Below the pieces are notes generated by a model. That model searched no databases. It was not told the DNA's origin and worked only from the letters and a program-made list of their open reading frames with translations. Made by a program: the position numbers and the translations under genes. Below are positions 3,962 to 36,289 of a DNA stretch of 64,000 bases, piece by piece. The stretch is taken from contig LFCN01000006.1 of the NCBI GenBank assembly GCA_001189075.1, positions 237,219 through 301,218 of the forward strand, given 5' to 3'. Numbering within the stretch: position 1 is the stretch's first letter; every line of letters starts with the position of its first letter. The DNA is from Parcubacteria bacterium C7867-004. Lineage in GTDB: Bacteria; Patescibacteriota; Minisyncoccia; Phycocordibacterales; Phycocordibacteraceae.

Positions 3962-4285
3962 ATGCCAATCATACGAATCGATTACGACAAGGAGCAGATC
4001 GAGAGCGAGGAAGTGCTAAGGCTTTCCCATGCTCTCCGGGATATCGTGTCTGAGGTAACGGGCATACAAGAGGTATTCGTCTATGCTGATAGCCACGAGA
4101 TCACCATCAAGGCGGATCCGCTTGAGATCTTCATAGAAATGAGCGCTCACCTTGCTACGGATGTTGATGCATTGATGGAGGAGATCAAGAAACGACTATC
4201 AGCATGGAAAGCAGAGGTGGGCTTCACCACACCGATAAACCTCACCATTATCCCGATGCAGTGGAAGATAGAGATCGGTATCTAA
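3962..4285 (+). CDS. hypothetical protein
   Basis: ORF 3932..4285. ATG at 3962 (MPIIRIDYD) chosen as start. No recognisable motifs. Confidence 0.4.
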   Translation: MPIIRIDYDKEQIESEEVLRLSHALRDIVSEVTGIQEVFVYADSHEITIKADPLEIFIEMSAHLATDVDALMEEIKKRLSAWKAEVGFTTPINLTIIPMQWKIEIGI

Positions 4286-4301
4286 AGGCTCAATCGTTCC
4301 T

Positions 4302-4736: not shown

Positions 4737-5305
4737 TGAACATGCTTTCCATAGAGGACACCAACCGCATGTCTTGGAATGAGGTCGATGAATGCAAAGA
4801 TCGGCTATTCAAGCAGATAGAAGCGGAATTCACTGACCCGGAATCCCTCATAATCGCGCCTCTGCTCCGGACAGGAGGAATTGTCGGCGGCATGCTGTCC
4901 ATAAAGCTTCGGGCGGTTCAGATGCTCCCGCTCCAGTTCAAGTATTTATATAACCCGACAAAGATCAGTCAGTTGCTCTCGATACCCGATTTTCTCGCTG
5001 AGGTGCCTAGCCCCATGAACGTTGTTCTGTGCGAAGGGAATACAAGCTCAGGCTCAACCGCGATAAAGGCATCCGCCGCGATACGTGAGAAATATCCGCA
5101 TGCAAAAGTTTACTTAGCTACGCTGACGAAAGTGTTCGGCGGCCCTGAGGAGCTCGAAGGCATAGAAAAGATATTCTATGGTCGCCAGACAGATGAAGGA
5201 TTTAAAGCTACTGCTGAAGAAAAGGAAAGCCTTGATCTAAGAGAAGGGGTTACCGTTTTCCCATGGGAAAATGCTGACGACGAACTCTCCGATCTAAATG
5301 CCTAG
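4736..5305 (+). CDS. phosphoribosyltransferase-like fold protein (degenerate PRPP motif)
   Basis: NVVLCEGNTSSGSTA resembles the type-I PRTase PRPP loop, but the acidic pair is replaced by EG. Start overlaps the previous stop (TAATG). Confidence 0.4.
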   Translation: MNMLSIEDTNRMSWNEVDECKDRLFKQIEAEFTDPESLIIAPLLRTGGIVGGMLSIKLRAVQMLPLQFKYLYNPTKISQLLSIPDFLAEVPSPMNVVLCEGNTSSGSTAIKASAAIREKYPHAKVYLATLTKVFGGPEELEGIEKIFYGRQTDEGFKATAEEKESLDLREGVTVFPWENADDELSDLNA

Positions 5306-5331
5306 AACAGACTGCTGGTCCTTGAGCCTCT

Positions 5332-5640
5332 CTATTTCTTAGATCGCTTGCTGAGCACCCCTCGCACCGAAGGACTCACCGCTTTATCCTTGCGGTGGAT
5401 ACAACCGATCCAGCAACAGGGACGGCGCACACCTTCCTTGAGCTTGCTGATAAGACACTCTCGATGCTCCTTTCTCGTCTCCTCCTTCTTTACGGAGATA
5501 ACCCAGCAGATCCATTCATTGCGCGCGAGCGGCGTAAGACTCTCCCAGGCAGCGCGTGCGGCCTTGCTTGAGGAAAGAGCCTTTTGGATATCTGAAGGTA
5601 GTGCGTGGGCGGTACCCGCGGAGATTGTTATCGTAGCCAT
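5332..5640 (-). CDS. YdeI/OmpD-associated family protein
   Basis: ~100 aa. C-terminal ...ARNEWICWVISVKKEETRKEHRECLISKL is typical of the YdeI (DUF1905-associated) family. Start taken at MATITIS. Confidence 0.55.
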   Translation of the reverse strand: MATITISAGTAHALPSDIQKALSSSKAARAAWESLTPLARNEWICWVISVKKEETRKEHRECLISKLKEGVRRPCCWIGCIHRKDKAVSPSVRGVLSKRSKK

Positions 5641-5691
5641 ACGTACATAGTACTGCAATTTTATTACCGGGAGATGTGCTACATTCTTCGC

Positions 5692-6237
5692 ATGGTTAGC
5701 ATCATGTACTTCGTCCATGGGACCACCGTCGACAACGAGAATGAGATCTCGTCCGGGTGGTCGGACGCAGAGCTCTCGGAGCTCGGTATCCGGCAGTCGA
5801 TCGAGCTCGGAGAGAAAGTCGATGGGGCATCATTCGACGTCGTCTTCTGCTCGGATCTTTCGCGGGCTCGCAAGTCCGCTGAACTCGCCTGGGGAGAGAC
5901 GGTACCCATCATTCCGGACGCTCGATTGCGGGAATGTAATTACGGAACGCTGAATGGCGCAGCTTCCGCGATCGTGGAGCCGCTGCAGGAGAGAGACATG
6001 CATCATACGCCGTTCCCGGAAGGGGAGAGCTATAACGATGTGAAGGACCGCGTCGCTGATTTCCTTGAATTCCTGAAAGCAGACTATGACGGGAAGCGCG
6101 TTGCTATAGTGGGTCATAAGGCTCCCCAGCTTGCGCTCGACGTATTGCTCAAAGGAATAACCTGGGACGAGGCGCTGGCTCGCGACTGGCGCAAGACCAA
6201 GTCCTGGCAGCCCGGGTGGGAATATACGATTACCTAA
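5692..6237 (+). CDS. histidine phosphatase family protein (phosphoglycerate mutase-like)
   Basis: YFVHGTT(V)...SDLSRARKSAE...VAIVGHKAP matches the RHG-type branch-1 phosphatase layout. The Arg of RHG is replaced by Val. Confidence 0.6.
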   Translation: MVSIMYFVHGTTVDNENEISSGWSDAELSELGIRQSIELGEKVDGASFDVVFCSDLSRARKSAELAWGETVPIIPDARLRECNYGTLNGAASAIVEPLQERDMHHTPFPEGESYNDVKDRVADFLEFLKADYDGKRVAIVGHKAPQLALDVLLKGITWDEALARDWRKTKSWQPGWEYTIT

Positions 6238-11544: not shown

Positions 11545-11592
11545 GTACGGGAGCTCTATACTTAGGGAATACCCCTAAGTACTATTCATTCC

Positions 11593-11901
11593 ATGGATTC
11601 AGATATGCAGAGCAAGTCGCACGTTATTCCCGTAGTTATCGGTATCATCGTTCTTGTACTCATCGGCGGTGTCGCGTACGCCATGATGAATAAGGAGGCG
11701 ATGATGATGGAGAAGAAGGACGCCATGATGGAGGAGAAGAAGATGGAAGGCGAGGGAAAGATGATGGAAGAGAACAAGATGATGGAGAACGGATCTTCCT
11801 CGGACACTATGATGAAGGGCGAGACGATGATGAAAGCCGATGATTCAGGAATGATGATGAAGGCTGAGTCAGGTGCGATGATGGACACCCCGACGAACTA
11901 A
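11593..11901 (+). CDS. membrane-anchored methionine-rich low-complexity protein
   Basis: One TM helix, then ~70 residues containing ~28 Met in MMxxKK / MMEE repeats. Confidence 0.6.
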   Translation: MDSDMQSKSHVIPVVIGIIVLVLIGGVAYAMMNKEAMMMEKKDAMMEEKKMEGEGKMMEENKMMENGSSSDTMMKGETMMKADDSGMMMKAESGAMMDTPTN

Positions 11902-26980: not shown

Positions 26981-27030
26981 CCTATTGGCAGGAAACGAGC
27001 GCCACGTTCTGTGGCGCTCGTTTCCAATAG
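26981..27030 (+). promoter_or_regulatory. long near-perfect hairpin in DEAD-box helicase leader
   Basis: CCTATTGGcaGGAAACGAGCGCCACgttcTGTGGCGCTCGTTTCCaATAGG forms a ~23-bp stem with no U-tract. Confidence 0.45.
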
Positions 27031-27233
27031 GGCTTGCTAAAATACGTACGTCTGCTATACTAGTTTCACAACGGTTACTCCATTGTTTGTCGTCCAGGGA
27101 GCCAAGGCTCAAAGGACCACGGGGCTACGCGCGAAACGCAACGCCTACACGCACAGAGAACGGTTGGAGTCGGTTTTCCGACGACCTTATACACAACCAA
27201 GGCACGGCGCACCCGTGCGAACAACAACACTAC

Positions 27234-28670
27234 ATGGATCAGAAGAACAACCAGCGCTCGCGTGGCGGAAGCCGTGGCGCAGCGCCATCACGCCGTCCCG
27301 GCGGTCGCGATACCCGCATGAGCTCCGCATACGAAGCAGGTATGAAGTTCGCGCTCGATAACGGCTTCAAGCGACCGATGACGGCCGCGGTAGAGCCGCG
27401 TCGCCGTCCTTCGGGAGGCGGAGCTTCACGTGGCGGACCCCGTCGCGATAGCGGCTCGTCGTCGAGCCGTGGCGGATACTCACGCGACGCAGGTCGGGGC
27501 GCGGATCGCGGTGGCTCACGCGGCGGAAGCCGTGGTGGCGGTCGCGGATTCCAGGAGATGCACGTCGACCTCGCAAAGCTCGTCAACAAGGCGCAGCCGC
27601 ACGAGGAAGTCGAGGCATACGTCCCGACCCACGCATTCGCTGACTTCGCTATCGATGAGCGTCTCAAGGACAACATCATCGCGAAGGGCTACATCACCCC
27701 GACCCCTATCCAGGATCAGTCGATCCCGCACGTCCTTCTCGGGAAGGATATCGTCGGCATGGCGAACACCGGAACAGGAAAGACCGCGGCATTCCTCATT
27801 CCGCTTATCGATAAAGTGCTTAAGTTCCGCGCGATCGGCACTGATGAGCGCGTGCTTATCATGGTTCCGACCCGCGAGCTCGCTATCCAGATCGAGGCCG
27901 AGTTCTTCGGCTTCGCGAAGGGGCTCCAGCTCTCGTCCGTTACCTGTGTCGGTGGCGCGAACATCACGCCGCAGATCCGCCTCCTTCAAAGGAAGCCGTC
28001 ATTCGTCATCGGTACTCCGGGACGCCTCAAGGACCTCATGGAGCGCCGCGATCTCGATCTCTCGAAGTTCGGCACCGTTGTCCTCGACGAGGCTGATCGC
28101 ATGCTCGACATGGGATTCATCGACGACATGCGCTTCATCATGAGCACGATGCGCGCTGAGCGCCACACGCTCTTCTTCTCGGCGACCATGTCCCGGGAGA
28201 TCCAGGCTCTCATCGGCGCATTCCTCAACGATCCCGTCTCGGTATCGGTGAAGACCCGCGAGACTTCGCACACTATCGAGCAGGACGTTGTGCGCGTTCC
28301 GCATGCTCAGAAATTCGAGAAGCTCGTCGAGCTTCTCTCGACTCCGGGCTTTGACAAGGTGCTCGTCTTCGGACGTACCAAGCACGGCGTCGAACGCCTC
28401 GCGAAGGATCTCCGTCACCGCGGCATCAAGTCTGATTCCATCCATGGAAACAAGACGCATGGCGCGCGCCAGAAAGCCCTTACCGCTTTCAAGCGCGGGG
28501 AAGCGAGCGTGCTTACCGCTACCGACGTTGCCGCTCGCGGTCTCGATATCTCGGGCGTTTCGCACGTCATCAACTATGACCTGCCGTCGACCTACGAGGA
28601 CTATACGCACCGCATCGGTCGTACCGGGCGCGCGGGACAGGCAGGCATGGCGCTTACCTTCATTCCGTAA
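27234..28670 (+). CDS. DEAD-box ATP-dependent RNA helicase with N-terminal RG-rich tail
   Basis: Q-motif, AxTGTGKT, PTRELA, DEAD (VLDEADRM), SAT and HRIGRTGR. ~100-aa RGG/SR N-terminus. ORF opens at 26985, but MDQKNNQ at 27234 is the likely start. Confidence 0.85.
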   Translation: MDQKNNQRSRGGSRGAAPSRRPGGRDTRMSSAYEAGMKFALDNGFKRPMTAAVEPRRRPSGGGASRGGPRRDSGSSSSRGGYSRDAGRGADRGGSRGGSRGGGRGFQEMHVDLAKLVNKAQPHEEVEAYVPTHAFADFAIDERLKDNIIAKGYITPTPIQDQSIPHVLLGKDIVGMANTGTGKTAAFLIPLIDKVLKFRAIGTDERVLIMVPTRELAIQIEAEFFGFAKGLQLSSVTCVGGANITPQIRLLQRKPSFVIGTPGRLKDLMERRDLDLSKFGTVVLDEADRMLDMGFIDDMRFIMSTMRAERHTLFFSATMSREIQALIGAFLNDPVSVSVKTRETSHTIEQDVVRVPHAQKFEKLVELLSTPGFDKVLVFGRTKHGVERLAKDLRHRGIKSDSIHGNKTHGARQKALTAFKRGEASVLTATDVAARGLDISGVSHVINYDLPSTYEDYTHRIGRTGRAGQAGMALTFIP

Positions 28671-28700
28671 GCAGCCGTCATCGAATACCAGGATAAGCCG

Positions 28701-28727
28701 AAAAAGCCCCGTTTTGCGGGGCTTTTT
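28701..28727 (+). terminator. intrinsic terminator after DEAD-box gene
   Basis: AAAAAGCCCCGttttGCGGGGCTTTTT. Confidence 0.7.
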
Positions 28728-28753
28728 CATGCCTACGGCTCCCGGCGGGAACA

Positions 28754-28781
28754 TTGACATATTTCTATTATGGTATATGAT
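28754..28781 (+). promoter_or_regulatory. sigma70-like promoter for the 28.9-31.6 kb module
   Basis: TTGACA, 16 nt, TATGAT, preceded by TG. Confidence 0.5.
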
Positions 28782-28823
28782 TAGAACAGGAAAAAAGTAC
28801 CTTGACAATAGAGGTTAGTACAC

Positions 28824-28880
28824 GGGCGGTTGCAGCCATAAGCGGCCTAGTTCTTAGGCCATTTACGGCTGCAACCGACC
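28824..28880 (+). promoter_or_regulatory. nested inverted-repeat element in 5' leader
   Basis: GGGCGGTTGCAGCC...GGCTGCAACCGaCCC outer stem encloses the inner palindrome GGCCTAGttcCTAGGCC. Confidence 0.45.
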
Positions 28881-28979
28881 CAACCCATCATGATGGTGGA
28901 CGGACAACAGCTCGTGTTGAGGCGATGCCTCGATGCAGATCACCTTTCCACCATCAGCAAATCTCAAGGAGACACCCTC

Positions 28980-30491
28980 ATGCGCATGCCGTTCAAGCGT
29001 CAGACCGCAACGACTGCCACGACCGACGAGAACGGGCTTGAGACTCTCAATCCCGCGCTCCTTCTGGAGGGCGAGATTGAGACCGAGATCGGGCGGGCGC
29101 ATGCCCTCGCGGTCACGTTCAAGCCCGGAGAAGAACTCCAACCCTTCCTCAGACAGATCATCGGGCGCGTCGCTCGCATGCACGTGGACTACAACAAGCG
29201 TGCGACGAGCACCCTGCAGGCTATCGCCGGCAGGTTCGTGGTCCTCAAGACCCAACTCGACCAGCCGGTCGAAACCGAGGCAGCGAAGTCTCGCGCGGAA
29301 CTCACCAAAAGGATCGAGAACCACGTGAGGGATCGCGTTCGTCGGAAACTGAAGATCGCCAGCTCCCTCAAGGGACAACGTGAAGACGAGCGCAAGCTCG
29401 CCATCGGCATCTTCGGTGATCCGGAACTCTCGGCTCAAAAGCCGAGCCGGCTGAAAGACGTGGCCGCCTTCCTCATCAGCCTCTTCGTTGGAGCGGGTCT
29501 CGACCTGTCCCTCAACCTGGAGTTGATGAGCTTCGGCTCCACCTTCGCCGTCGCGATCTCCATGTCGCTGCTGATCTCGCTGATCGGTGCGACCTTGGCG
29601 CATTTCGCCTCCCGGTCCATCAGGACCTGGAAGTGCCATCGCCAAGCCCTCGCCGCCTTCAGCCGGGAATTCCCGGATGGGAAGGACTTCAAGACTGGGA
29701 AAGAGGTCTTCGTGTTGCCGCTGCCGCCCGGCTTCGCGCCGATGGCAAGCGTCACGCACGGCGGCCTCATCCTGCTCGCTGCCGCTCTTGTCTGGGTTCG
29801 CCTGGACATCATGCGGGACCAGCCCGGCGCGAATGCCATCGGCCTCTTCGCGACCTTCCTGGTGATCGGCACCTGGTTCGTCCAGTACCTCTTTGAAGCG
29901 TTCATGTCGGGCATCGAACACGCCCGGCTCCGTGAGCTTCATGAGATGCAGGAGAACCTGGGCGGTCTCGAAGAGGAACACCTTTCCCTCAGCGAGATCG
30001 ACGGCACCGACGAGTTCATGGTCAAGATCGGCCAAGAGGTCTCGGACTACGAAGAAGCCGCCGTGACCCGCGCGAAAGCGCTGGCAGAGACGGCGGAAAA
30101 GCTCACTCGCGAGCGTAACGAGTTCGATCGTTTGTTGGCGGAGTTCCAGGCATCTCATGCCTGGTTCACCGCCGCTGCGACGGATGTGGCCGAGGTTTTC
30201 CTGGCCGACGTCGCGGGCTCCAAGACTGCTCCGAGTGCGCTTAAGCCCAACGATCTCAGTACGATGATCGTGGGCGTGCTCCCGGAACCCGTCAAGGCTG
30301 TGGCTGATTTCGACAAGATCTTCGCCTTCGATGTCCCGCAAGACGGGGCGTCGGAGGAACCGGTCGACGTCGAGACTATCGTCCTCAGCTTCGCGGACGC
30401 TTTCGAGGCTCGTGAACGTTCGCGACAAGAAAAAGAAGCTGAGCGGGCTCGAGTCGAAGAGGCGCAAGCCTTCCTCGCCAAGACCAACTGA
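28980..30491 (+). CDS. polytopic membrane protein with N- and C-terminal cytoplasmic coiled-coil domains (unknown family)
   Basis: ~503 aa. ~165-aa soluble N-terminus, 3-4 central TM helices, ~190-aa acidic coiled-coil C-terminus. Very GC-rich codons. Confidence 0.55.
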   Translation: MRMPFKRQTATTATTDENGLETLNPALLLEGEIETEIGRAHALAVTFKPGEELQPFLRQIIGRVARMHVDYNKRATSTLQAIAGRFVVLKTQLDQPVETEAAKSRAELTKRIENHVRDRVRRKLKIASSLKGQREDERKLAIGIFGDPELSAQKPSRLKDVAAFLISLFVGAGLDLSLNLELMSFGSTFAVAISMSLLISLIGATLAHFASRSIRTWKCHRQALAAFSREFPDGKDFKTGKEVFVLPLPPGFAPMASVTHGGLILLAAALVWVRLDIMRDQPGANAIGLFATFLVIGTWFVQYLFEAFMSGIEHARLRELHEMQENLGGLEEEHLSLSEIDGTDEFMVKIGQEVSDYEEAAVTRAKALAETAEKLTRERNEFDRLLAEFQASHAWFTAAATDVAEVFLADVAGSKTAPSALKPNDLSTMIVGVLPEPVKAVADFDKIFAFDVPQDGASEEPVDVETIVLSFADAFEARERSRQEKEAERARVEEAQAFLAKTN

Positions 30492-30520
30492 GCTACAACA
30501 CCTTCAGGAAAGTTACTGAC

Positions 30521-31606
30521 ATGAAACGCCAAGCTGTCACGCCCACGCCGAAGGCCGGGCAAAAGTCCGCATCGCGCGGATTCAGTATCTGGTGGATCGT
30601 CGGCGCGGTGGGAGCGTTCATCGCCCTCATCGCCCTGATCTCCGTCTTCGTCTTCGGGCGATCGGAGTTCATGCCGCAGACGGACACCTACACCTTCGCG
30701 CGCGACCTGTCCATCGACAACGGCCAGAAGATCGATCCCGCCACGTTCAAGGACACGACGGGAAAGATCACGCTCGCCGAGGTCTTCACGGACAACAAGG
30801 CGCTGAGCTACTACGGCGCCGACGACAAGGGTCAAGACGGAGTGGGCCTCACGGTCCGCTTCGTCACGACGGTGGGCGGCAGGCCGGTCCCTGGTGGGGA
30901 CAAGGCCTTCAGCCTTCCGGGCTGGAAGAGCCGAAACGAGAACGGGGTCAACAACCCCGTTCGTCGCGCGTTCGCGAAAGAGAAGCAGGGCGAGTTCCAC
31001 TCGCTCGTCGGCTCCTTCGCCGCGTCCGTTTCTCTCGATCGTCTCGCAGTCGTGGTGGTCGACACCACGAGCGGGGTGAGCGAGGACATGGCCCGCCGGG
31101 TCAACACCACGGTCAACGGGATCTGCAAGGATCCCGATACTGTGGTCCGGCTGCACCTCATCTCGAGCGAGTCCTACCAGGGCGGCGCTCGCGAATGGCG
31201 GTGTCGGATCCTGTCTTCGGGCGAGATCGACGCGGTGATCGCAAGCCAAGGGGCCAACGCCTCCGGCGTGCTCAAGAGCCTCCGGGCTATCACCGAGTCG
31301 GTCTCGAACGAGGTCGCGGAGAACCCGCGGTCGCTGGTCACGGTCCATGTCTTCACCGACGGGATCGAGAACTACGACGGCTGGGACTTCTACAAGGCCC
31401 AGCGCCCGATGATCGAAGACCAGTCCAACTGGTCCAAGGTCGATGAGCGGTTCGGTCTCGCCAGCTTCAAGCTGCAAGGGGTGAGGTTCGTCCTCCACCC
31501 CACGCCGCAACCGCCGGAGCATCAGGCGCTGATGGGGCATGCACTCGCGTACCTGGCCGACAGGCTGGAGAACGCGGGCGCGAAGGTCCAAAAGCTCGAC
31601 TTCTAG
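30521..31606 (+). CDS. membrane-anchored protein with vWA-like domain
   Basis: N-terminal TM. VVVVDTTSGVS (MIDAS-like) and VHVFTDGIEN (vWA TDG motif). 30 nt downstream of the previous gene. Confidence 0.5.
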   Translation: MKRQAVTPTPKAGQKSASRGFSIWWIVGAVGAFIALIALISVFVFGRSEFMPQTDTYTFARDLSIDNGQKIDPATFKDTTGKITLAEVFTDNKALSYYGADDKGQDGVGLTVRFVTTVGGRPVPGGDKAFSLPGWKSRNENGVNNPVRRAFAKEKQGEFHSLVGSFAASVSLDRLAVVVVDTTSGVSEDMARRVNTTVNGICKDPDTVVRLHLISSESYQGGAREWRCRILSSGEIDAVIASQGANASGVLKSLRAITESVSNEVAENPRSLVTVHVFTDGIENYDGWDFYKAQRPMIEDQSNWSKVDERFGLASFKLQGVRFVLHPTPQPPEHQALMGHALAYLADRLENAGAKVQKLDF

Positions 31607-31641
31607 TCGGGCCAACGACGGTACTACCCTCTATTGTACTT

Positions 31642-31684
31642 GCGCCCCCTGGACCACAACGGTTCCGGGGGCGTTTTCTTTTAT
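31642..31684 (+). terminator. intrinsic terminator
   Basis: GCGCCCCCTGGaccacaacggttCCGGGGGCG, then TTTTCTTTT. Confidence 0.6.
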
Positions 31685-31720
31685 ACAGCCGTTGAGTATG
31701 CCTTTCGGTATACTGGATAG

Positions 31721-32179
31721 ATGCAAACGGATTCTCCTCACGGTACGGGATTCGATCCGGATTTCCGGCCGGATCTGACGCCCGCGCAAATGCTCGCGCT
31801 CGGCGTGTTCGGCGGCGCGTATTTTGATAACGAATCGACAGACGAATATCCGAAGGAATGGTTCAAGGATGCAAAGATCTCGGATCATGGCCCCGATAAG
31901 AGCCTGAACTATTTCGGTGTCGATGCGTCGCAGTCGAGAGAGGAGTGGATACGCAAAGGATGGATACGCGATCAGGATCCGCTCGGGTGGTTCCAGTGGT
32001 ACTGCCGGTATTATCTCGGTCGCCGCTCAGAGGATGATGCGCGTCAGATCAAGCGCTGGCGTCAGATGGTCCGTCATGCGGCGCAGGTGAAGTACGGATG
32101 TCGCGCAGGAGACGCAACCTGCAGGCCCAAGCAGCGTCAGGCGCTGTTACACTGGGCCTATGACTCACGCAGGATCTGA
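31721..32179 (+). CDS. hypothetical conserved protein
   Basis: 152 aa, Trp-rich (WFQWYCRYYLGRR). No TM helices. Family not recognised. Confidence 0.45.
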   Translation: MQTDSPHGTGFDPDFRPDLTPAQMLALGVFGGAYFDNESTDEYPKEWFKDAKISDHGPDKSLNYFGVDASQSREEWIRKGWIRDQDPLGWFQWYCRYYLGRRSEDDARQIKRWRQMVRHAAQVKYGCRAGDATCRPKQRQALLHWAYDSRRI

Positions 32180-32804
32180 TCGATTCAAGTACGGCTGGCT
32201 CACGCTCACGCTCACGCTCACGCTCAGTCTCGTATCGTCAGCAGCGTTCCTCGCGCTCGCGCTTATCGAATACTACGCCCACGATCTTCCGCAAGCGGTA
32301 GATTCCTTAGTCGCTACTATGATCGGTCCCTTACGTACGGTCGGACTCATAGAGGTATTCCTCACCATAACTACGCTCGGGAACACGCTCTCGATAGTGC
32401 TCGTCGCGCTTGCTTCCGCATTCTTCCTGCGTAAGAGCCCGCACGTTGTCGAACGTCTCGCGTTCGTGCTCATCGGAAGCACGCTTGTCGTAAACATCGT
32501 GAAGATCGCGATATCCCGCGTACGACCGGAAACACTCATATGGTTCGATCCGCTGCTTACGTATTCCTTTCCGAGCGGGCACGCGGCAGCAAGCATGGCG
32601 CTGTACGGGTCCTTGGCGATCATATCCGCACGCTTGCTGAGGGGCTGGAAACGCACACTCGCTGTTATCCTCTGCGTCCTCATCATCCTCGGGGTAGGCA
32701 CAAGCCGGGTGGTGCTCAGCGCACATTTCTTCACGGATGTAATCGGTGGATACCTGCTTGGTATCGCGTTCGTAGCCTTGGCGTTCTCGTTTAGGAGCCG
32801 CTAG
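32160..32804 (+). CDS. PAP2 superfamily phosphatase
   Basis: KIAISRVRP (KxxxxxxRP), FPSGHAAAS (PSGH) and SRVVLSAHFFTDVIGG (SRxxxxxHxxxD). Confidence 0.8.
   Translation: MTHAGSDRFKYGWLTLTLTLTLSLVSSAAFLALALIEYYAHDLPQAVDSLVATMIGPLRTVGLIEVFLTITTLGNTLSIVLVALASAFFLRKSPHVVERLAFVLIGSTLVVNIVKIAISRVRPETLIWFDPLLTYSFPSGHAAASMALYGSLAIISARLLRGWKRTLAVILCVLIILGVGTSRVVLSAHFFTDVIGGYLLGIAFVALAFSFRSR
32199..32227 (+). repeat. (CTCACG)n hexanucleotide tandem repeat, ~4.7 units
   Basis: ctcacgctcacgctcacgctcacgctcag encodes the (LT)n run LTLTLTLTL near the PAP2 N-terminus. Confidence 0.8.
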
Positions 32805-33462
32805 CGGGACCCTGCTTCTGGGCTTCTTCGGCTTTCTTGTCTTGCCGATGGTTCCAGTATTCGAATGCGAGCGGAAGGAATGAGAGTACGATGATCAATC
32901 CGATGATAGGAAGGAGGTAGTGCTCGCTTTGTGGAAAGGATCTTCCGAGGAAGTACCCGAGTGTCGTCACGCCCGTTCCCCAGAGCAATGCGCCGATGAC
33001 GTTGTAGGTGATGAAGGTGCGGTACTGCATCGAGCCGATGCCGGCGAGTATCGGGACGAATGAGCGCACGGCCGGTATGAAGCGGGCAAGGACAACCGCA
33101 CGCACGCCATACTTCTCATAGAACTCCTCGGTGCGCTTCACATGCTTCTCCTTGATGAAGAAGGAGTCGGGTCGTCCGAGGTATTTCTTGCCAAGCACGC
33201 TTCCGAGCCAGTACCCAGCGCTGTCGCCGAGTATCGCTGCAATGGTAACGACCACCACGAGCGGCACGATAGGGAACCATCCTTGGGACGCGAGGAAGCC
33301 GGCGGTAAACAGGAGGCTCTCTCCGGGAAAGACGAATCCGAACGGCATGCCACTCTCGCAAAAGACGATAATGAAAAGGCCTACTAATCCCGCGCTCTGG
33401 ACCAGGTGCGGCAGTGAGATACCGATAGCATCAAGCATTTCATCCCAGTATACTGCCCCCAT
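32791..33462 (-). CDS. DedA/VTT (SNARE-associated) family membrane protein
   Basis: FCESGMPFGFVFPGESLLFTAGFLA and ...VVLARFIP... DedA signatures. Start may instead be MLDAIG at 33438. Confidence 0.8.
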   Translation of the reverse strand: MGAVYWDEMLDAIGISLPHLVQSAGLVGLFIIVFCESGMPFGFVFPGESLLFTAGFLASQGWFPIVPLVVVVTIAAILGDSAGYWLGSVLGKKYLGRPDSFFIKEKHVKRTEEFYEKYGVRAVVLARFIPAVRSFVPILAGIGSMQYRTFITYNVIGALLWGTGVTTLGYFLGRSFPQSEHYLLPIIGLIIVLSFLPLAFEYWNHRQDKKAEEAQKQGPASGS

Positions 33463-33871
33463 GAACGAACGGGAATTCGAGCAGATCGCGATAGAGGAGT
33501 GGAAGCGGGTGCCGGACCGATTTAAGGGGAAGATACAGAATCTCGCACTCCTTATCGAAGACGAGCCAGACCAGGAGGTGCGAGAACTGGAAGCGCTCGA
33601 AGAGGGCGAGACGCTGCTCGGTCTCTATCGCGGCGTCCCGCTCACCGAACGGGGAAGCGAGTACGGCATCGGCATGACGCTGCCCGATACGATAACGCTG
33701 TACCGGCTTCCAATTATAGAGGAGGCGGAGGAGATGGATCGCGCGTTCAGGGATGCGGTGCGCATTGTTGTCCGCGAGACCATATGGCACGAAGTAGGGC
33801 ACTACTTCGGTCATGGGGAAGAATCGATCAATGAGCGGGAGGATGATGGGACCAATCGGTTCGAGTCCTAA
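33461..33871 (+). CDS. zincin-like metallopeptidase family protein (DUF1025-like)
   Basis: HExxH in IWHEVGHYFGH. ~136 aa. Confidence 0.6.
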   Translation: MNEREFEQIAIEEWKRVPDRFKGKIQNLALLIEDEPDQEVRELEALEEGETLLGLYRGVPLTERGSEYGIGMTLPDTITLYRLPIIEEAEEMDRAFRDAVRIVVRETIWHEVGHYFGHGEESINEREDDGTNRFES

Positions 33872-33991: not shown

Positions 33992-36289
33992 ATGATTTCT
34001 AAGATAAATCGCGTCAGAAAACTCGGACTCGTCTTCGCTGACTTCTCATGGTCAGCGGTAGTCCCCGCGTTTCGAGCCTTCAATCTGGTCTATGGCTGGA
34101 ACGGCTGCGGAAAAACGACGCTCACCCGCCTGTTCGACATGATCGCGCGCGGCGACGCTGGCGAGGTGGAATACGAAGTTGAAGATGTAAGCGGGGCCGC
34201 TTTCAGGTCAGCAGATCAATTCCCCACGCCGATACGCGTCTTCAATCAGGACTACGTCCAGAGCAATGTCCGAGTCCTGGAGTCGTCAGCGAACACAATC
34301 TCCGTACTGTTGGGCGCAGAGAACAAGGAACTCGCGACCCAGATTGAAGCTGACGAGCGCCTCCTGAACGGCTTGCCAGGTGACGGCGACAAAATCGGGA
34401 AGGTTCGCGAACTGCGCGGGTACACCGAAAAGAAGATCCGCAAGGAAAAGGGTAACGACACCGCCTTCACCGACATCGCCAAGACCATCGGAGCGGCGAT
34501 TGTCGGTAGCGGCGCGGCATCTCGCACCTATCGGGCTCCGGATGCGAAGAAGGACTTCTCTAGCATAAAAGCGCCCGCGCTCCTCTCGGACGAGGAGCGG
34601 GAACGGCACATTCTGGCGCTCAAGCAGGAGATGCTGCCCGAGGTGGAGCCAGTCCAGGCCCCTTCCTTGGACTTTAACGGCAAAGAGGCCTCAGTCCTCG
34701 AGGTCCTCGCCGCGCTTTCCGACCGCGCGGCCGCGCTCTGCATCGAAACGGTCGAGAGCGAAACGGTCCGCAAGCTAATAGGGCATCCCGACATCGCAGC
34801 CTGGGTTGAGGCGGGCCTCCATCTTCACAACGAGCATTCGTCGAAGAGTTGTGAATTCTGCGGCAACGAAATCCCAAAGGACCGCTTGGCCCAGCTTGCG
34901 CGCCACTTCAGCGAGGCCGATCGACGCCTGAAGGCGGACGTTGAGGCTGTCGTGGTGCAGCTCCGCGACGTGCATCGCCTCCTTACGGCCGTTCCGGTGC
35001 CCGATGCTGCGCGCCTATACCGCGAGCTTCAGGCGGACTTCGCCGAGAAGCGGTTGCTGGTTGAGGATGCCCGAACCAACCTGCTGGCACAGGTAACGGC
35101 GGTCGGGAAGGCGCTTCAAGAAAAGAAGTTGCGCACGACAGAAGCCGTCGAGCTAGGCGCAGGGGTGGACGTGAGGCCGCTCGCCGATGCGATCGAGACG
35201 GCGAACGCCGTGATCGAAATGCACAACCGGAGATCCAAGGACTTCATGGCGGTGCAGAGAAAGTCAGTGGGCGCGATCAAGGTGCACTATCTCAGCACCA
35301 TCTTCGACGATGTGACGCGGCGAAACGGCGAGATTGCAGAACTCGTAACAGGCCTCGCGCGGCGGTCCGTGGAGATCGATGAAATTCGCGCTCGGGTCGC
35401 AGCAGCACGGGCCAAGATCTCCTCCGCTCATGCGGCATGCGAGCAGATCAACGAAGGCCTTAGGACCTTCTTGGGGCGCGACGAGCTGCGCTTTGTACCT
35501 GAGGAGCGCGAAGCCGACGGGGACGGCCAGGCCGCGGGTACTGTGTTGGGTTATCGGATCATGCGGGGCGACGAGCCGGCGGTTTATCTCAGCGAAGGGG
35601 AGAAGACAGCACTCGGGTTCGTGTACTTCGTTGTGCACCTCAACGACGGTCAGTTCCCTAAGCGGGATGGAATCGTCGTTATCGATGACCCGATCTCAAG
35701 CCTCGACTCGAACTCTCTCTACCAAGCGTTCAGCTTCCTCAAGAATGCTGTGGCGGGTTGCCAGCAGGTCTTCGTGCTCACTCACAATTTTGACTTTCTC
35801 AAGCTCCTCCTGAATTGGCGTAAACGGGATGGAGGTGCCGGATACTACATGATCAAGAACCATATCGAAGCCGACGAACGACGTGCCTCGATTGTCGAAA
35901 TGGACAAGGAGCTTCGGCAGTACGAGAGCGAGTACCATTACCTGTTCAAGCGCCTGAAGGAGATGCGGACGGAGCAGGACGGCACAATCATGCGCGCCTA
36001 TCCGGTGCCGAACATCGCGCGCAAGGTTTGGGACACGTTCCTCACCTTCCAAGTTCCGAACGGCGAGAGTCAATATCAGAAGATGAAGTACCTCAAGACG
36101 CAGGACTATTCAGCCGAAAAGCTCGACGCCATATATAAGTTTACGAACGATCAGTCCCACATCACCGGTGCGGGCTTTGATCCCGCTCTGGTCCCTGAGA
36201 CACAGAAGGTTCTGGCCGAGTTGTTCGAGATGATGGAGCAGATCGCGCCCGAGCATTTCCGGATTCTCGACCGCGCTACGGCTGTCTAG
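33992..36289 (+). CDS. RloC/PrrC-like AAA_13 ATPase with zinc hook and anticodon-nuclease-like C-terminal domain
   Basis: Walker A GWNGCGKTT. Central coiled-coil with CEFC. Walker B/ABC-like VVIDDPISSLD. C-terminal IARKVWDTFLTF and NDQSH. Confidence 0.65.
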   Translation: MISKINRVRKLGLVFADFSWSAVVPAFRAFNLVYGWNGCGKTTLTRLFDMIARGDAGEVEYEVEDVSGAAFRSADQFPTPIRVFNQDYVQSNVRVLESSANTISVLLGAENKELATQIEADERLLNGLPGDGDKIGKVRELRGYTEKKIRKEKGNDTAFTDIAKTIGAAIVGSGAASRTYRAPDAKKDFSSIKAPALLSDEERERHILALKQEMLPEVEPVQAPSLDFNGKEASVLEVLAALSDRAAALCIETVESETVRKLIGHPDIAAWVEAGLHLHNEHSSKSCEFCGNEIPKDRLAQLARHFSEADRRLKADVEAVVVQLRDVHRLLTAVPVPDAARLYRELQADFAEKRLLVEDARTNLLAQVTAVGKALQEKKLRTTEAVELGAGVDVRPLADAIETANAVIEMHNRRSKDFMAVQRKSVGAIKVHYLSTIFDDVTRRNGEIAELVTGLARRSVEIDEIRARVAAARAKISSAHAACEQINEGLRTFLGRDELRFVPEEREADGDGQAAGTVLGYRIMRGDEPAVYLSEGEKTALGFVYFVVHLNDGQFPKRDGIVVIDDPISSLDSNSLYQAFSFLKNAVAGCQQVFVLTHNFDFLKLLLNWRKRDGGAGYYMIKNHIEADERRASIVEMDKELRQYESEYHYLFKRLKEMRTEQDGTIMRAYPVPNIARKVWDTFLTFQVPNGESQYQKMKYLKTQDYSAEKLDAIYKFTNDQSHITGAGFDPALVPETQKVLAELFEMMEQIAPEHFRILDRATAV

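Follow-up and report, generated by a model that had tools for sequence, protein, structure and literature searches.

The closest described systems to the locus considered here are surface adhesins that carry a von Willebrand factor A (vWA) domain with a metal ion-dependent adhesion site (MIDAS), among them integrin alpha-I, PitA, GBS104, SpaC, the modular pilin PilB of S. sanguinis and Mfa5. In the MoxR-vWA and BatA-D systems, a bacterial vWA protein, which is sometimes membrane-anchored, is likewise encoded with a dedicated partner. Stators of the MotA/MotB type, which include ZorA/ZorB and GldL/GldM, are 5:2 complexes that pair a protein of four transmembrane (TM) helices with a single-pass protein; their genes are adjacent or overlapping and an acidic residue lies within the membrane. 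The subject of this report is a two-gene operon, referred to as A-B, located in a 64,000-nucleotide stretch of the genome of Parcubacteria bacterium C7867-004 (contig LFCN01000006.1, positions 237,219 to 301,218; hereafter the window, with coordinates counted from its first letter). Gene A encodes a four-helix membrane protein and gene B an anchored protein with a vWA fold. As a preferred but tentative reading, in which the function is inferred, it is proposed that A and B may form a fast-evolving, metal-dependent, two-subunit envelope receptor complex that is specific to Parcubacteria and whose mRNA is under unusual control.

Parcubacteria and other bacteria of the candidate phyla radiation (CPR) are thought to live attached to other cells. 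To our knowledge, almost nothing has been learned of CPR surface receptors, and this strictly paired, compact and fast-evolving membrane/vWA module is a tangible candidate for a system that recognises hosts or the environment.

The A-B pair can be distinguished from each of the vWA systems. Unlike the vWA adhesins, gene B has no sequence-level similarity to Pfam or PDB entries, its MIDAS lacks the third Ser, and it always occurs with a dedicated four-helix partner. In contrast to sortase-anchored adhesins, the C-terminus of gene B reads ...KLDF and the anchor is instead an N-terminal TM helix. As regards type IV (modular) pilins, no class III signal is present in gene B, which has RG-FSIWW and no Glu5, and most N-termini in the family are short and Lys/Arg-containing, with no G-F motif. 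The MoxR AAA+ ATPase, DUF58 and TPR partners of the MoxR-vWA and Bat systems were not found around the pair in the window genome or in six other loci; the partner here is a novel four-helix protein, and the vWA domain is predicted to lie outside the cell. A-B would be a surface vWA receptor with a novel partner. No description of the pair was found in the literature, and the initial annotation of the window similarly knew of no characterised system with this pairing.

An anchored vWA-fold protein

The source genome bin, C7867-004, derives from Hanford groundwater and comprises 779 kb with a GC content of 56% (PMC4508563). DNA around gene B homologues was taken from species genomes, from metagenomes and by exact look-up, and the homologous loci compared with the window are denoted by L-numbers (L004, L005, L007, L010, L011, L013 and L016-L019).

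Gene B (30521-31606, forward strand) encodes a protein of 361 amino acids, made up of an N-terminal anchor (residues ~23-45), a small beta-rich subdomain and a vWA domain (~173-358). The anchor and the motifs DTTSGVS and VFTDGIEN, on which the initial annotation had based a vWA assignment, are all present. Neither gene B, compared with Pfam, NCBIfam, PADLOC and PHROGs, nor any of 24 family members, compared with vWA profiles, gave a match, and the family profile retrieved nothing from PDB sequences at E <= 10. A word-indexed search of 5.8 billion proteins yielded a single relative, 32% identical. An exhaustive HMMER search with two B sequences, made against 1.84 billion representatives of clusters at 50% identity, recovered 62 cluster representatives, 23 of them below 1e-30 and nearly all 330-380 amino acids long.

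An alignment of 24 B sequences contains the motifs VVDTTEGV, YQGGR, SSVLRGL, FTDGLEN, NWxKLD and YLADRL, with D181, D308, Y344 and R348 invariant. The AlphaFold2 model built from this alignment is confident (predicted local distance difference test score, pLDDT, 86.9; predicted template modelling score 0.79). An N-terminal helix at residues 23-45 and a small part rich in beta structure precede an alpha/beta domain, which starts at about residue 173. When the model was used in a fold search, the matches were almost exclusively vWA domains, including those of PitA, GBS104, the minor pilin PilB, Mfa5 and integrin I-domains. Judged by the predicted structure, gene B has a vWA fold, and the original assignment was correct. 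The fold is invisible to every sequence profile, yet it was recovered by structure prediction from an alignment of 24 sequences; gene B represents a new branch of this fold, an orphan at the sequence level.

A MIDAS-like set of residues is formed by D181-x-T183-x-G185, S248 and D280. T183, S248, D280 and G281 are nearly invariant, and the positions of the set, where beta-1 and beta-4 end and where a helix begins, are those typical of MIDAS residues. Positive charge precedes the anchor, and two co-varying Cys pairs, which suggest disulfides, occur in subsets of the family. Together, the positive N-terminus and the co-varying Cys pairs suggest that the anchor is oriented with its N-terminus inside, so that the vWA domain would be outside the cell.

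A four-helix membrane partner

Gene A (28980-30491, forward strand) encodes an all-helical protein of 503 amino acids, and its homologues align from exactly its Met. Four hydrophobic helices are located at residues ~161-181, 187-209, 258-277 and 287-306, and the C-terminal 197 residues are acidic, with 42 Asp and Glu against 20 Lys and Arg. In these respects the protein is as the initial annotation had described it (~503 amino acids, central TM helices and an acidic C-terminus). The 48-residue central loop contains 5-9 Lys/Arg residues and the two short loops 0-2. By the positive-inside rule, the N-terminal domain (~155 amino acids), the C-terminal domain (~197 amino acids) and the central loop are probably cytoplasmic.

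In BLASTP comparisons, gene A matched the upstream genes of two homologous loci with E = 6e-21 and 7e-16, and a hidden Markov model (HMM) built from ten full-length A proteins matches 14 loci. Residues kept in at least nine of the ten full-length members are G146, P148, an acidic residue at 175 in TM1, S196, D236, R274, Y303 and F396, the first two forming a G-x-P motif that sits just ahead of TM1 in sequence order. Gene A has no match in Pfam, NCBIfam, PADLOC or PHROGs, and the word-indexed search of 5.8 billion proteins returned only gene A itself. The matches of its profile to PDB sequences were exclusively designed helical bundles, which were set aside as an effect of composition. No catalytic motif had been recognised in gene A by the initial annotation, and the profile libraries and the PDB likewise contain no family match. 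On the evidence of these searches, gene A is the founder of an uncharacterised family without known relatives.

Pairing, distribution and divergence

An A homologue lies directly 5' of B, on the same strand, in all 14 loci with enough upstream sequence, and this upstream partner is everywhere a protein of ~450-540 amino acids with the architecture of gene A. The stop codon of A and the start codon of B overlap by 1-4 nucleotides in five loci (L004, L010, L016, L017 and one further contig), and elsewhere the gaps are 2-40 nucleotides. These overlapping or closely spaced codons indicate co-translation of fixed partners.

The hosts named for the family are Parcubacteria, Candidatus Nomurabacteria and one metagenome-assembled genome labelled Bdellovibrionales, the last by its label only; the operon is almost confined to the tiny, symbiotic Parcubacteria. 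A pattern scan of 185,579 species genomes recovered two with the gene B family.

A and B diverge much faster than the genes around them. Between compared genomes, the neighbours UvrD, KsgA, LysM-M23 and Zincin_1 are 72%, 53%, 49% and 73% identical, respectively, against 18-33% for A and 31-37% for B. The proteins of the window and L007 are 27% (A) and 31% (B) identical. Pairs drawn from the 24 B proteins have a median identity of 29% and are at most 47% identical, and nine of ten clusters examined at 90% identity have a single member.

Elsewhere in the window, the B-family HMM has a weak match (E = 0.0011) at 11566-11898, in an open reading frame (ORF) of ~102 amino acids, which is probably due to TM-helix similarity only.

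A structured leader RNA

The module follows directly on the terminator of a DEAD-box gene (28700-28728, perfect 12-nucleotide arms followed by a T run). Its sigma-70-type promoter, TTGACA-N16-TATGAT (28754-28781, forward strand), matches the consensus at 11 of 12 positions, and near-consensus TTGACA/TATAAT-like promoters were found by eye at the equivalent relative position in L011, L013, L017, L018, L019 and L005. Transcription would end at an intrinsic terminator (31642-31683, forward strand), a 13-bp GC-rich hairpin at 31642-31674 followed by UUUUCUUUU. The promoter, a structured leader of ~190 nucleotides and the terminator had all been noted at the outset, and the claim of a self-contained two-gene membrane module is supported.

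Structured leaders are well known from 5' untranslated region (UTR) stabilisers and cis-regulatory elements such as the ompA 5' UTR, ribosomal-protein leaders and riboswitches, with which the present leader shares hairpins near the 5' end, an unpaired Shine-Dalgarno sequence and a conserved structure. It folds with z = -6.3, and none of 200 shuffled sequences folds as well. Three hairpins, all on the forward strand, can be recognised. P0 (28799-28815) is a short stem whose loop contains the conserved UUGAYAAUAG; it is invariant in the window, L007 and L013, and in L011, L017 and L018 the changes in the stem, read by eye, are compensatory while the loop motif is kept. P1 (28824-28880) is a nested stem around GGCCTA-gttct-TAGGCC, with 26-nucleotide arms that are 85% complementary. 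The inner palindrome had been reported before; it is there, but the spelling given then, ...ttcCTAGGCC, was wrong. In P2 (28891-28956), defined by folding and alignment, the base, GAUGGUGGAC / UCCACCAUC, is conserved, as is a segment resembling GGACAGCAAG.

The leader is conserved beyond the window. Positions 28796-28909 are 81% identical at the nucleotide level to L007, the leader of which also folds into P0, P1 and P2 (z = -9.9); the interior of P2 is wholly different between the two, and folds in both. A covariance model made from the window and L007 leaders detected an element immediately 5' of A homologues, in L013 with E 1e-15 and also in L011; after one iteration, L011 was found at 7e-8 and L017 at 0.003. 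For P1, 21 pairs are predicted from four sequences, four of them with compensatory changes on both sides, and 25 pairs from three sequences, 98.6% paired. A structural alignment of three sequences has 99.2% of its cells paired and nine pairs with double changes, against 0-3 in slid controls and a value not reached by any of 500 shuffles; these counts come from few sequences and from an alignment fitted to the model. The structured leader proposed at first thus folds, is conserved and carries compensatory changes. Read by eye, L018 and L019 have a P0-like motif followed by a long hairpin and then a third one, as in the window, with stems of unrelated sequence. The covariance model detected no leader in L004, L005 or L010.

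Several modes of action were considered. P1 was rejected as a terminator or attenuator, having no U tract behind it. The Shine-Dalgarno sequence of gene A, AAGGAG (28966-28971, forward strand), is located 8 nucleotides 5' of the start codon in a CA-rich linker that is unpaired in the minimum-energy fold; simple sequestration of this site by the leader is therefore unlikely. The sequence M(M)VDGQQ is conserved at the 5' arm of P2. A leader peptide was nevertheless rejected: neither the window nor L007 has a Shine-Dalgarno sequence for it, and the two differ in the frame through the 3' arm of P2 and have unrelated peptide tails. The window and L007 do not share a reading frame across P2, which places the constraint there on the RNA and not on a peptide.

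In contrast to known cis-regulatory leaders, this one has no Rfam match (a search of 28650-29050 gave only sub-threshold, terminator-like or miRNA-like chance hits) and no terminator/antiterminator or Shine-Dalgarno-sequestering alternative, and its loop and bulge sequences, UUGAYAAUAG and GGACAGCAAG, are more conserved than the proteins encoded downstream. The conservation of these segments suggests a specific binding partner. As far as can be told, the leader is an RNA that has not been described so far, and it is a candidate new RNA motif.

Other elements occur 5' of A in some loci. In L017, a palindromic hairpin at 5798-5842 matches the P1 part of the model weakly on both strands (E about 0.003-0.02); a 193-amino acid gene without a Pfam match lies 5' of the A homologue (5159-5740), and the stretch past its stop codon (~5850-6000) has moderately raised GC. 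In L004 (~4060-4295) and L010 (965-1225), an ORF of ~86 amino acids directly 5' of the A homologue takes the place of the three-hairpin leader. The two look related by eye (RGKKLV...VDDVG...LVPIG), the L010 copy has no Pfam match, and the ORF could be a third member of the operon in that lineage.

Base composition of the pair

The initial annotation had described third codon positions that are almost all G or C. In the window this was overstated for gene A: its third-position GC content (GC3) is 0.78, on a par with the values for TypA (0.79) and the DEAD-box gene (0.77) beside it. Gene B, at 0.87, is indeed extreme, ranking first among 62 window ORFs (z = 3.4), and it is the sole outlier of the pair there. 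Two long ORFs on the reverse strand, at 28863-30467 (534 amino acids) and 30155-31615 (486 amino acids), correspond to the stop-free antisense frames seen initially; they are by-products of the GC3-rich codons, and were rejected as genes since they are absent or fragmented in the lower-GC3 loci L004 and L005.

In every genome checked, the pair is far richer in GC than the genes beside it. GC3 of A and B combined, set against that of flanking genes, is 0.82 and 0.74 in the window, 0.83 and 0.72 in L007, 0.67 and 0.42 in L013, 0.74 and 0.41 in L011, 0.62 and 0.31 in L017, 0.76 and 0.32 in L018, 0.47 and 0.24 in L019, 0.65 and 0.26 in L005, and 0.54 and 0.49 in L004. A and B rank first and second for GC3 in seven of eight loci, with z from 3 to 15, and the local GC content of the host loci spans 35% to 57%. 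A 150-nucleotide GC profile goes up at the start codon of A and down at the stop codon of B. GC1, GC2 and amino acid composition are shifted only slightly. Both C and G are increased whatever the degeneracy class, and the share of A among fourfold sites goes down from ~0.36 to ~0.09.

Two simple explanations can be set aside. Expression-linked codon bias is unlikely, as GC3 is not raised in nearby genes for ribosomal proteins, IF3 and RRF, and G and C rise together. Nor can the excess be a remnant of recent transfer, because the divergence of the A and B proteins is saturated. The GC excess is therefore maintained by some process, and, as far as can be told, a gene-specific excess of this kind has not been described so far. 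Two candidates for this process are GC-biased gene conversion, if the locus recombines, and selection for an mRNA that resists nucleases and lives long, and the pair could inform the debate between biased conversion and selection for GC. A broader statement, that A-B is a lineage-specific, hypervariable surface-receptor locus with a new class of cis-acting leader and an active process that keeps its ORFs 10-25 GC points (20-45 GC3 points) above the host over long spans of evolution, is put forward as a possibility on the doubtful side. If true, it would be a new example of gene-specific control of base composition in bacteria with reduced genomes.

A recombination hot spot, in which frequent allelic exchange under diversifying selection, together with GC-biased gene conversion, would raise GC at every synonymous site and generate both the GC excess and the hyper-divergence, is compatible with the receptor model but appears unlikely as the explanation. 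It can be likened loosely to antigenic-variation loci, of which the Borrelia vls locus is also GC-rich. In its favour, the flanks, that is the leader and Zincin_1, are 75-81% identical in nucleotides around a pair 27-31% identical in protein, the rise of both C and G with the drop in fourfold A points to a general GC pressure and not to C-only translational selection, and the nearby ribosomal-protein, IF3 and RRF genes have no raised GC3. Set against this, no silent donor copies or paralogues of the pair occur within the 64-kb window, there is no GC skew, and the effects of biased gene conversion reported for bacteria fall far short of the +0.2 to +0.45 GC3 seen here.

Proposed function of the A-B complex

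In the proposed receptor complex, gene B would be held in the membrane by its single N-terminal helix with the vWA domain displayed outside; by way of its partial MIDAS and a divalent cation, this domain would probably bind a ligand, either a protein or a surface. Gene A would be the membrane partner, its four helices contacting the anchor of gene B and its cytoplasmic helical domains serving as a scaffold or transducer in an arrangement resembling that of integrins. A ligand-facing system engaged in an arms race, or tracking different hosts, would be expected to diverge fast in both proteins. The near-consensus promoter would drive the operon, and the three-hairpin leader and GC-rich coding sequence would control or stabilise the mRNA after transcription. 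Acting together, the leader and the GC-rich ORFs may make the mRNA resistant to nucleases and keep it under tight control, biased gene conversion being the alternative source of the GC excess.

A number of points weigh against this proposal. The A-B partnership and the binding of ligand and metal are predictions, and the role of gene A is a guess from topology, as its single-sequence model (pLDDT 45) is unreliable. The fifth MIDAS position of gene B is Gly185, so that metal coordination may be weak or absent. A short N-terminal helix keeps gene B near the membrane, and the protein may not reach past a wall or S-layer, which speaks against direct adhesion to a host. Neighbourhoods of a housekeeping kind, with one copy of the pair per locus, would suit a core envelope function too, and a model of adhesion or reception does not itself explain the GC3 excess.

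The pair could otherwise be an ion-driven membrane machine of the MotAB, ExbBD, ZorAB or GldLM type, with a polytopic A and a single-pass B whose outer vWA domain anchors to, or pulls on, an envelope component. The inferred topology of gene A is that of MotA and ZorA (N-terminus inside, TM1-2, a cytoplasmic loop, TM3-4 and a long helical tail), gene B is laid out like MotB and ZorB (one TM helix between a short cytoplasmic N-terminus and an outer domain), and the two genes are adjacent and often overlap. Of ten gene A members, nine have the acidic residue in TM1 and nine have Y303, and S196 and R274 occur in all. However, neither protein matches Pfam MotA_ExbB, MotB/OmpA or PADLOC Zorya even at E <= 1. 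A conserved TM Asp is the hallmark of MotB, TolR, ExbD and ZorB, and it is missing from the TM helix of gene B; unlike in stators, the acidic residue lies in gene A, and the outer domain is a vWA domain and not a peptidoglycan-binding OmpA-like one. The likeness is one of overall topology only, and a stator function is considered improbable.

A similarly small chance is given to a core function in the envelope or cell wall of Parcubacteria, for example as a scaffold for wall remodelling or division, in place of a ligand receptor. It would account for a single copy among housekeeping genes and for a strong, conserved promoter, and it finds some echo in the neighbourhood, where Nomurabacteria-type loci adjoin genes for a LysM-M23 peptidase and an Amidase_2 protein and the window pair is near PAP2 and DedA genes. 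A core function is difficult to reconcile with the rarity of the family (62 cluster representatives out of 1.84 billion at the 50% level, and two of the 185,579 species genomes), with a divergence far above that of neighbouring core genes and with neighbourhoods that vary between lineages.

Genomic neighbourhood and origin

The neighbours of the pair are housekeeping genes: TypA and the DEAD-box helicase in the window and, in other loci, UvrC and UvrA; RRF, RseP and an aminoacyl-tRNA synthetase; ribosomal L9 and L27; and NDK. L005, L018 and L019 share the order Zip, LysM-M23, A, B, two large proteins, UvrD and KsgA, and the window and L007 have the leader and a downstream Zincin_1 gene in common.

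The initial annotation had favoured a horizontally acquired accessory unit, perhaps related to phage defence, and had set conserved core synteny with typical GC against that view; synteny is indeed partly conserved, but GC is atypical in every genome. Judged as a genomic island, the pair has an atypical composition but shows neither insertion signatures nor relatives on mobile elements. Although a GC-rich block sharply bounded in every host, a promoter and terminator of its own and, in the window genome, an AAA_13 (RloC-like) gene 2.4 kb 3' of the pair would suit a defence or mobile cassette transferred recently and repeatedly from a GC-rich donor, this reading is largely refuted and very improbable: the pair is kept in at least 14 loci, with synteny retained in L005, L018 and L019; homologues are ~30% identical even between close hosts, so that transfers would be ancient and GC should have drifted towards that of the host; the GC step begins at the start codon and not at the promoter or leader; PADLOC assigned the pair to no defence family; searches of IMG/VR and of phage and plasmid collections gave no relatives; and there are no flanking direct repeats, tRNA genes or integrase around the pair. 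In the whole 64-kb window, no tRNA or other Rfam family reached the gathering score.

Downstream of the module in the window, a 152-amino acid ORF without a Pfam match lies directly 3' of the terminator (31721-32179) and is unlinked to the pair in other loci. The Zincin_1 gene (33461-33871 in the window; 2962-3366 in L007) is 73% identical in protein and 75% in nucleotides between the two loci. It directly follows A-B in L007, whereas in the window the 152-amino acid ORF and the PAP2 and DedA genes (31721-33462) intervene, which indicates a local rearrangement or insertion. The RloC-like gene of the initial annotation (33992-36289) encodes a protein of 765 amino acids that matches AAA_13 (PF13166) with E = 5e-122; it is found near the pair in the window genome only and is not a recurrent neighbour elsewhere.

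Upstream, the reading frame of the DEAD-box gene remains open for ~190 codons 5' of its annotated start at 27558 (26985-27557). This stretch encodes an Arg/Gly/Ser-rich, RGG-like segment and has a promoter-like site at 27034-27061; the helicase may have an unannotated low-complexity N-terminal extension.

In the Nomurabacteria-type loci, one or two large genes, of 267-311 and 807-1069 amino acids, lie 3' of the pair (L018 9263-12633, L019 9075-12614 and L005 7652-10861). Between genomes that share a 72% identical UvrD, no similarity among them can be detected, and with a GC3 of 0.21-0.26 they exceed even their surroundings in AT content. These genes probably encode hypervariable surface proteins.

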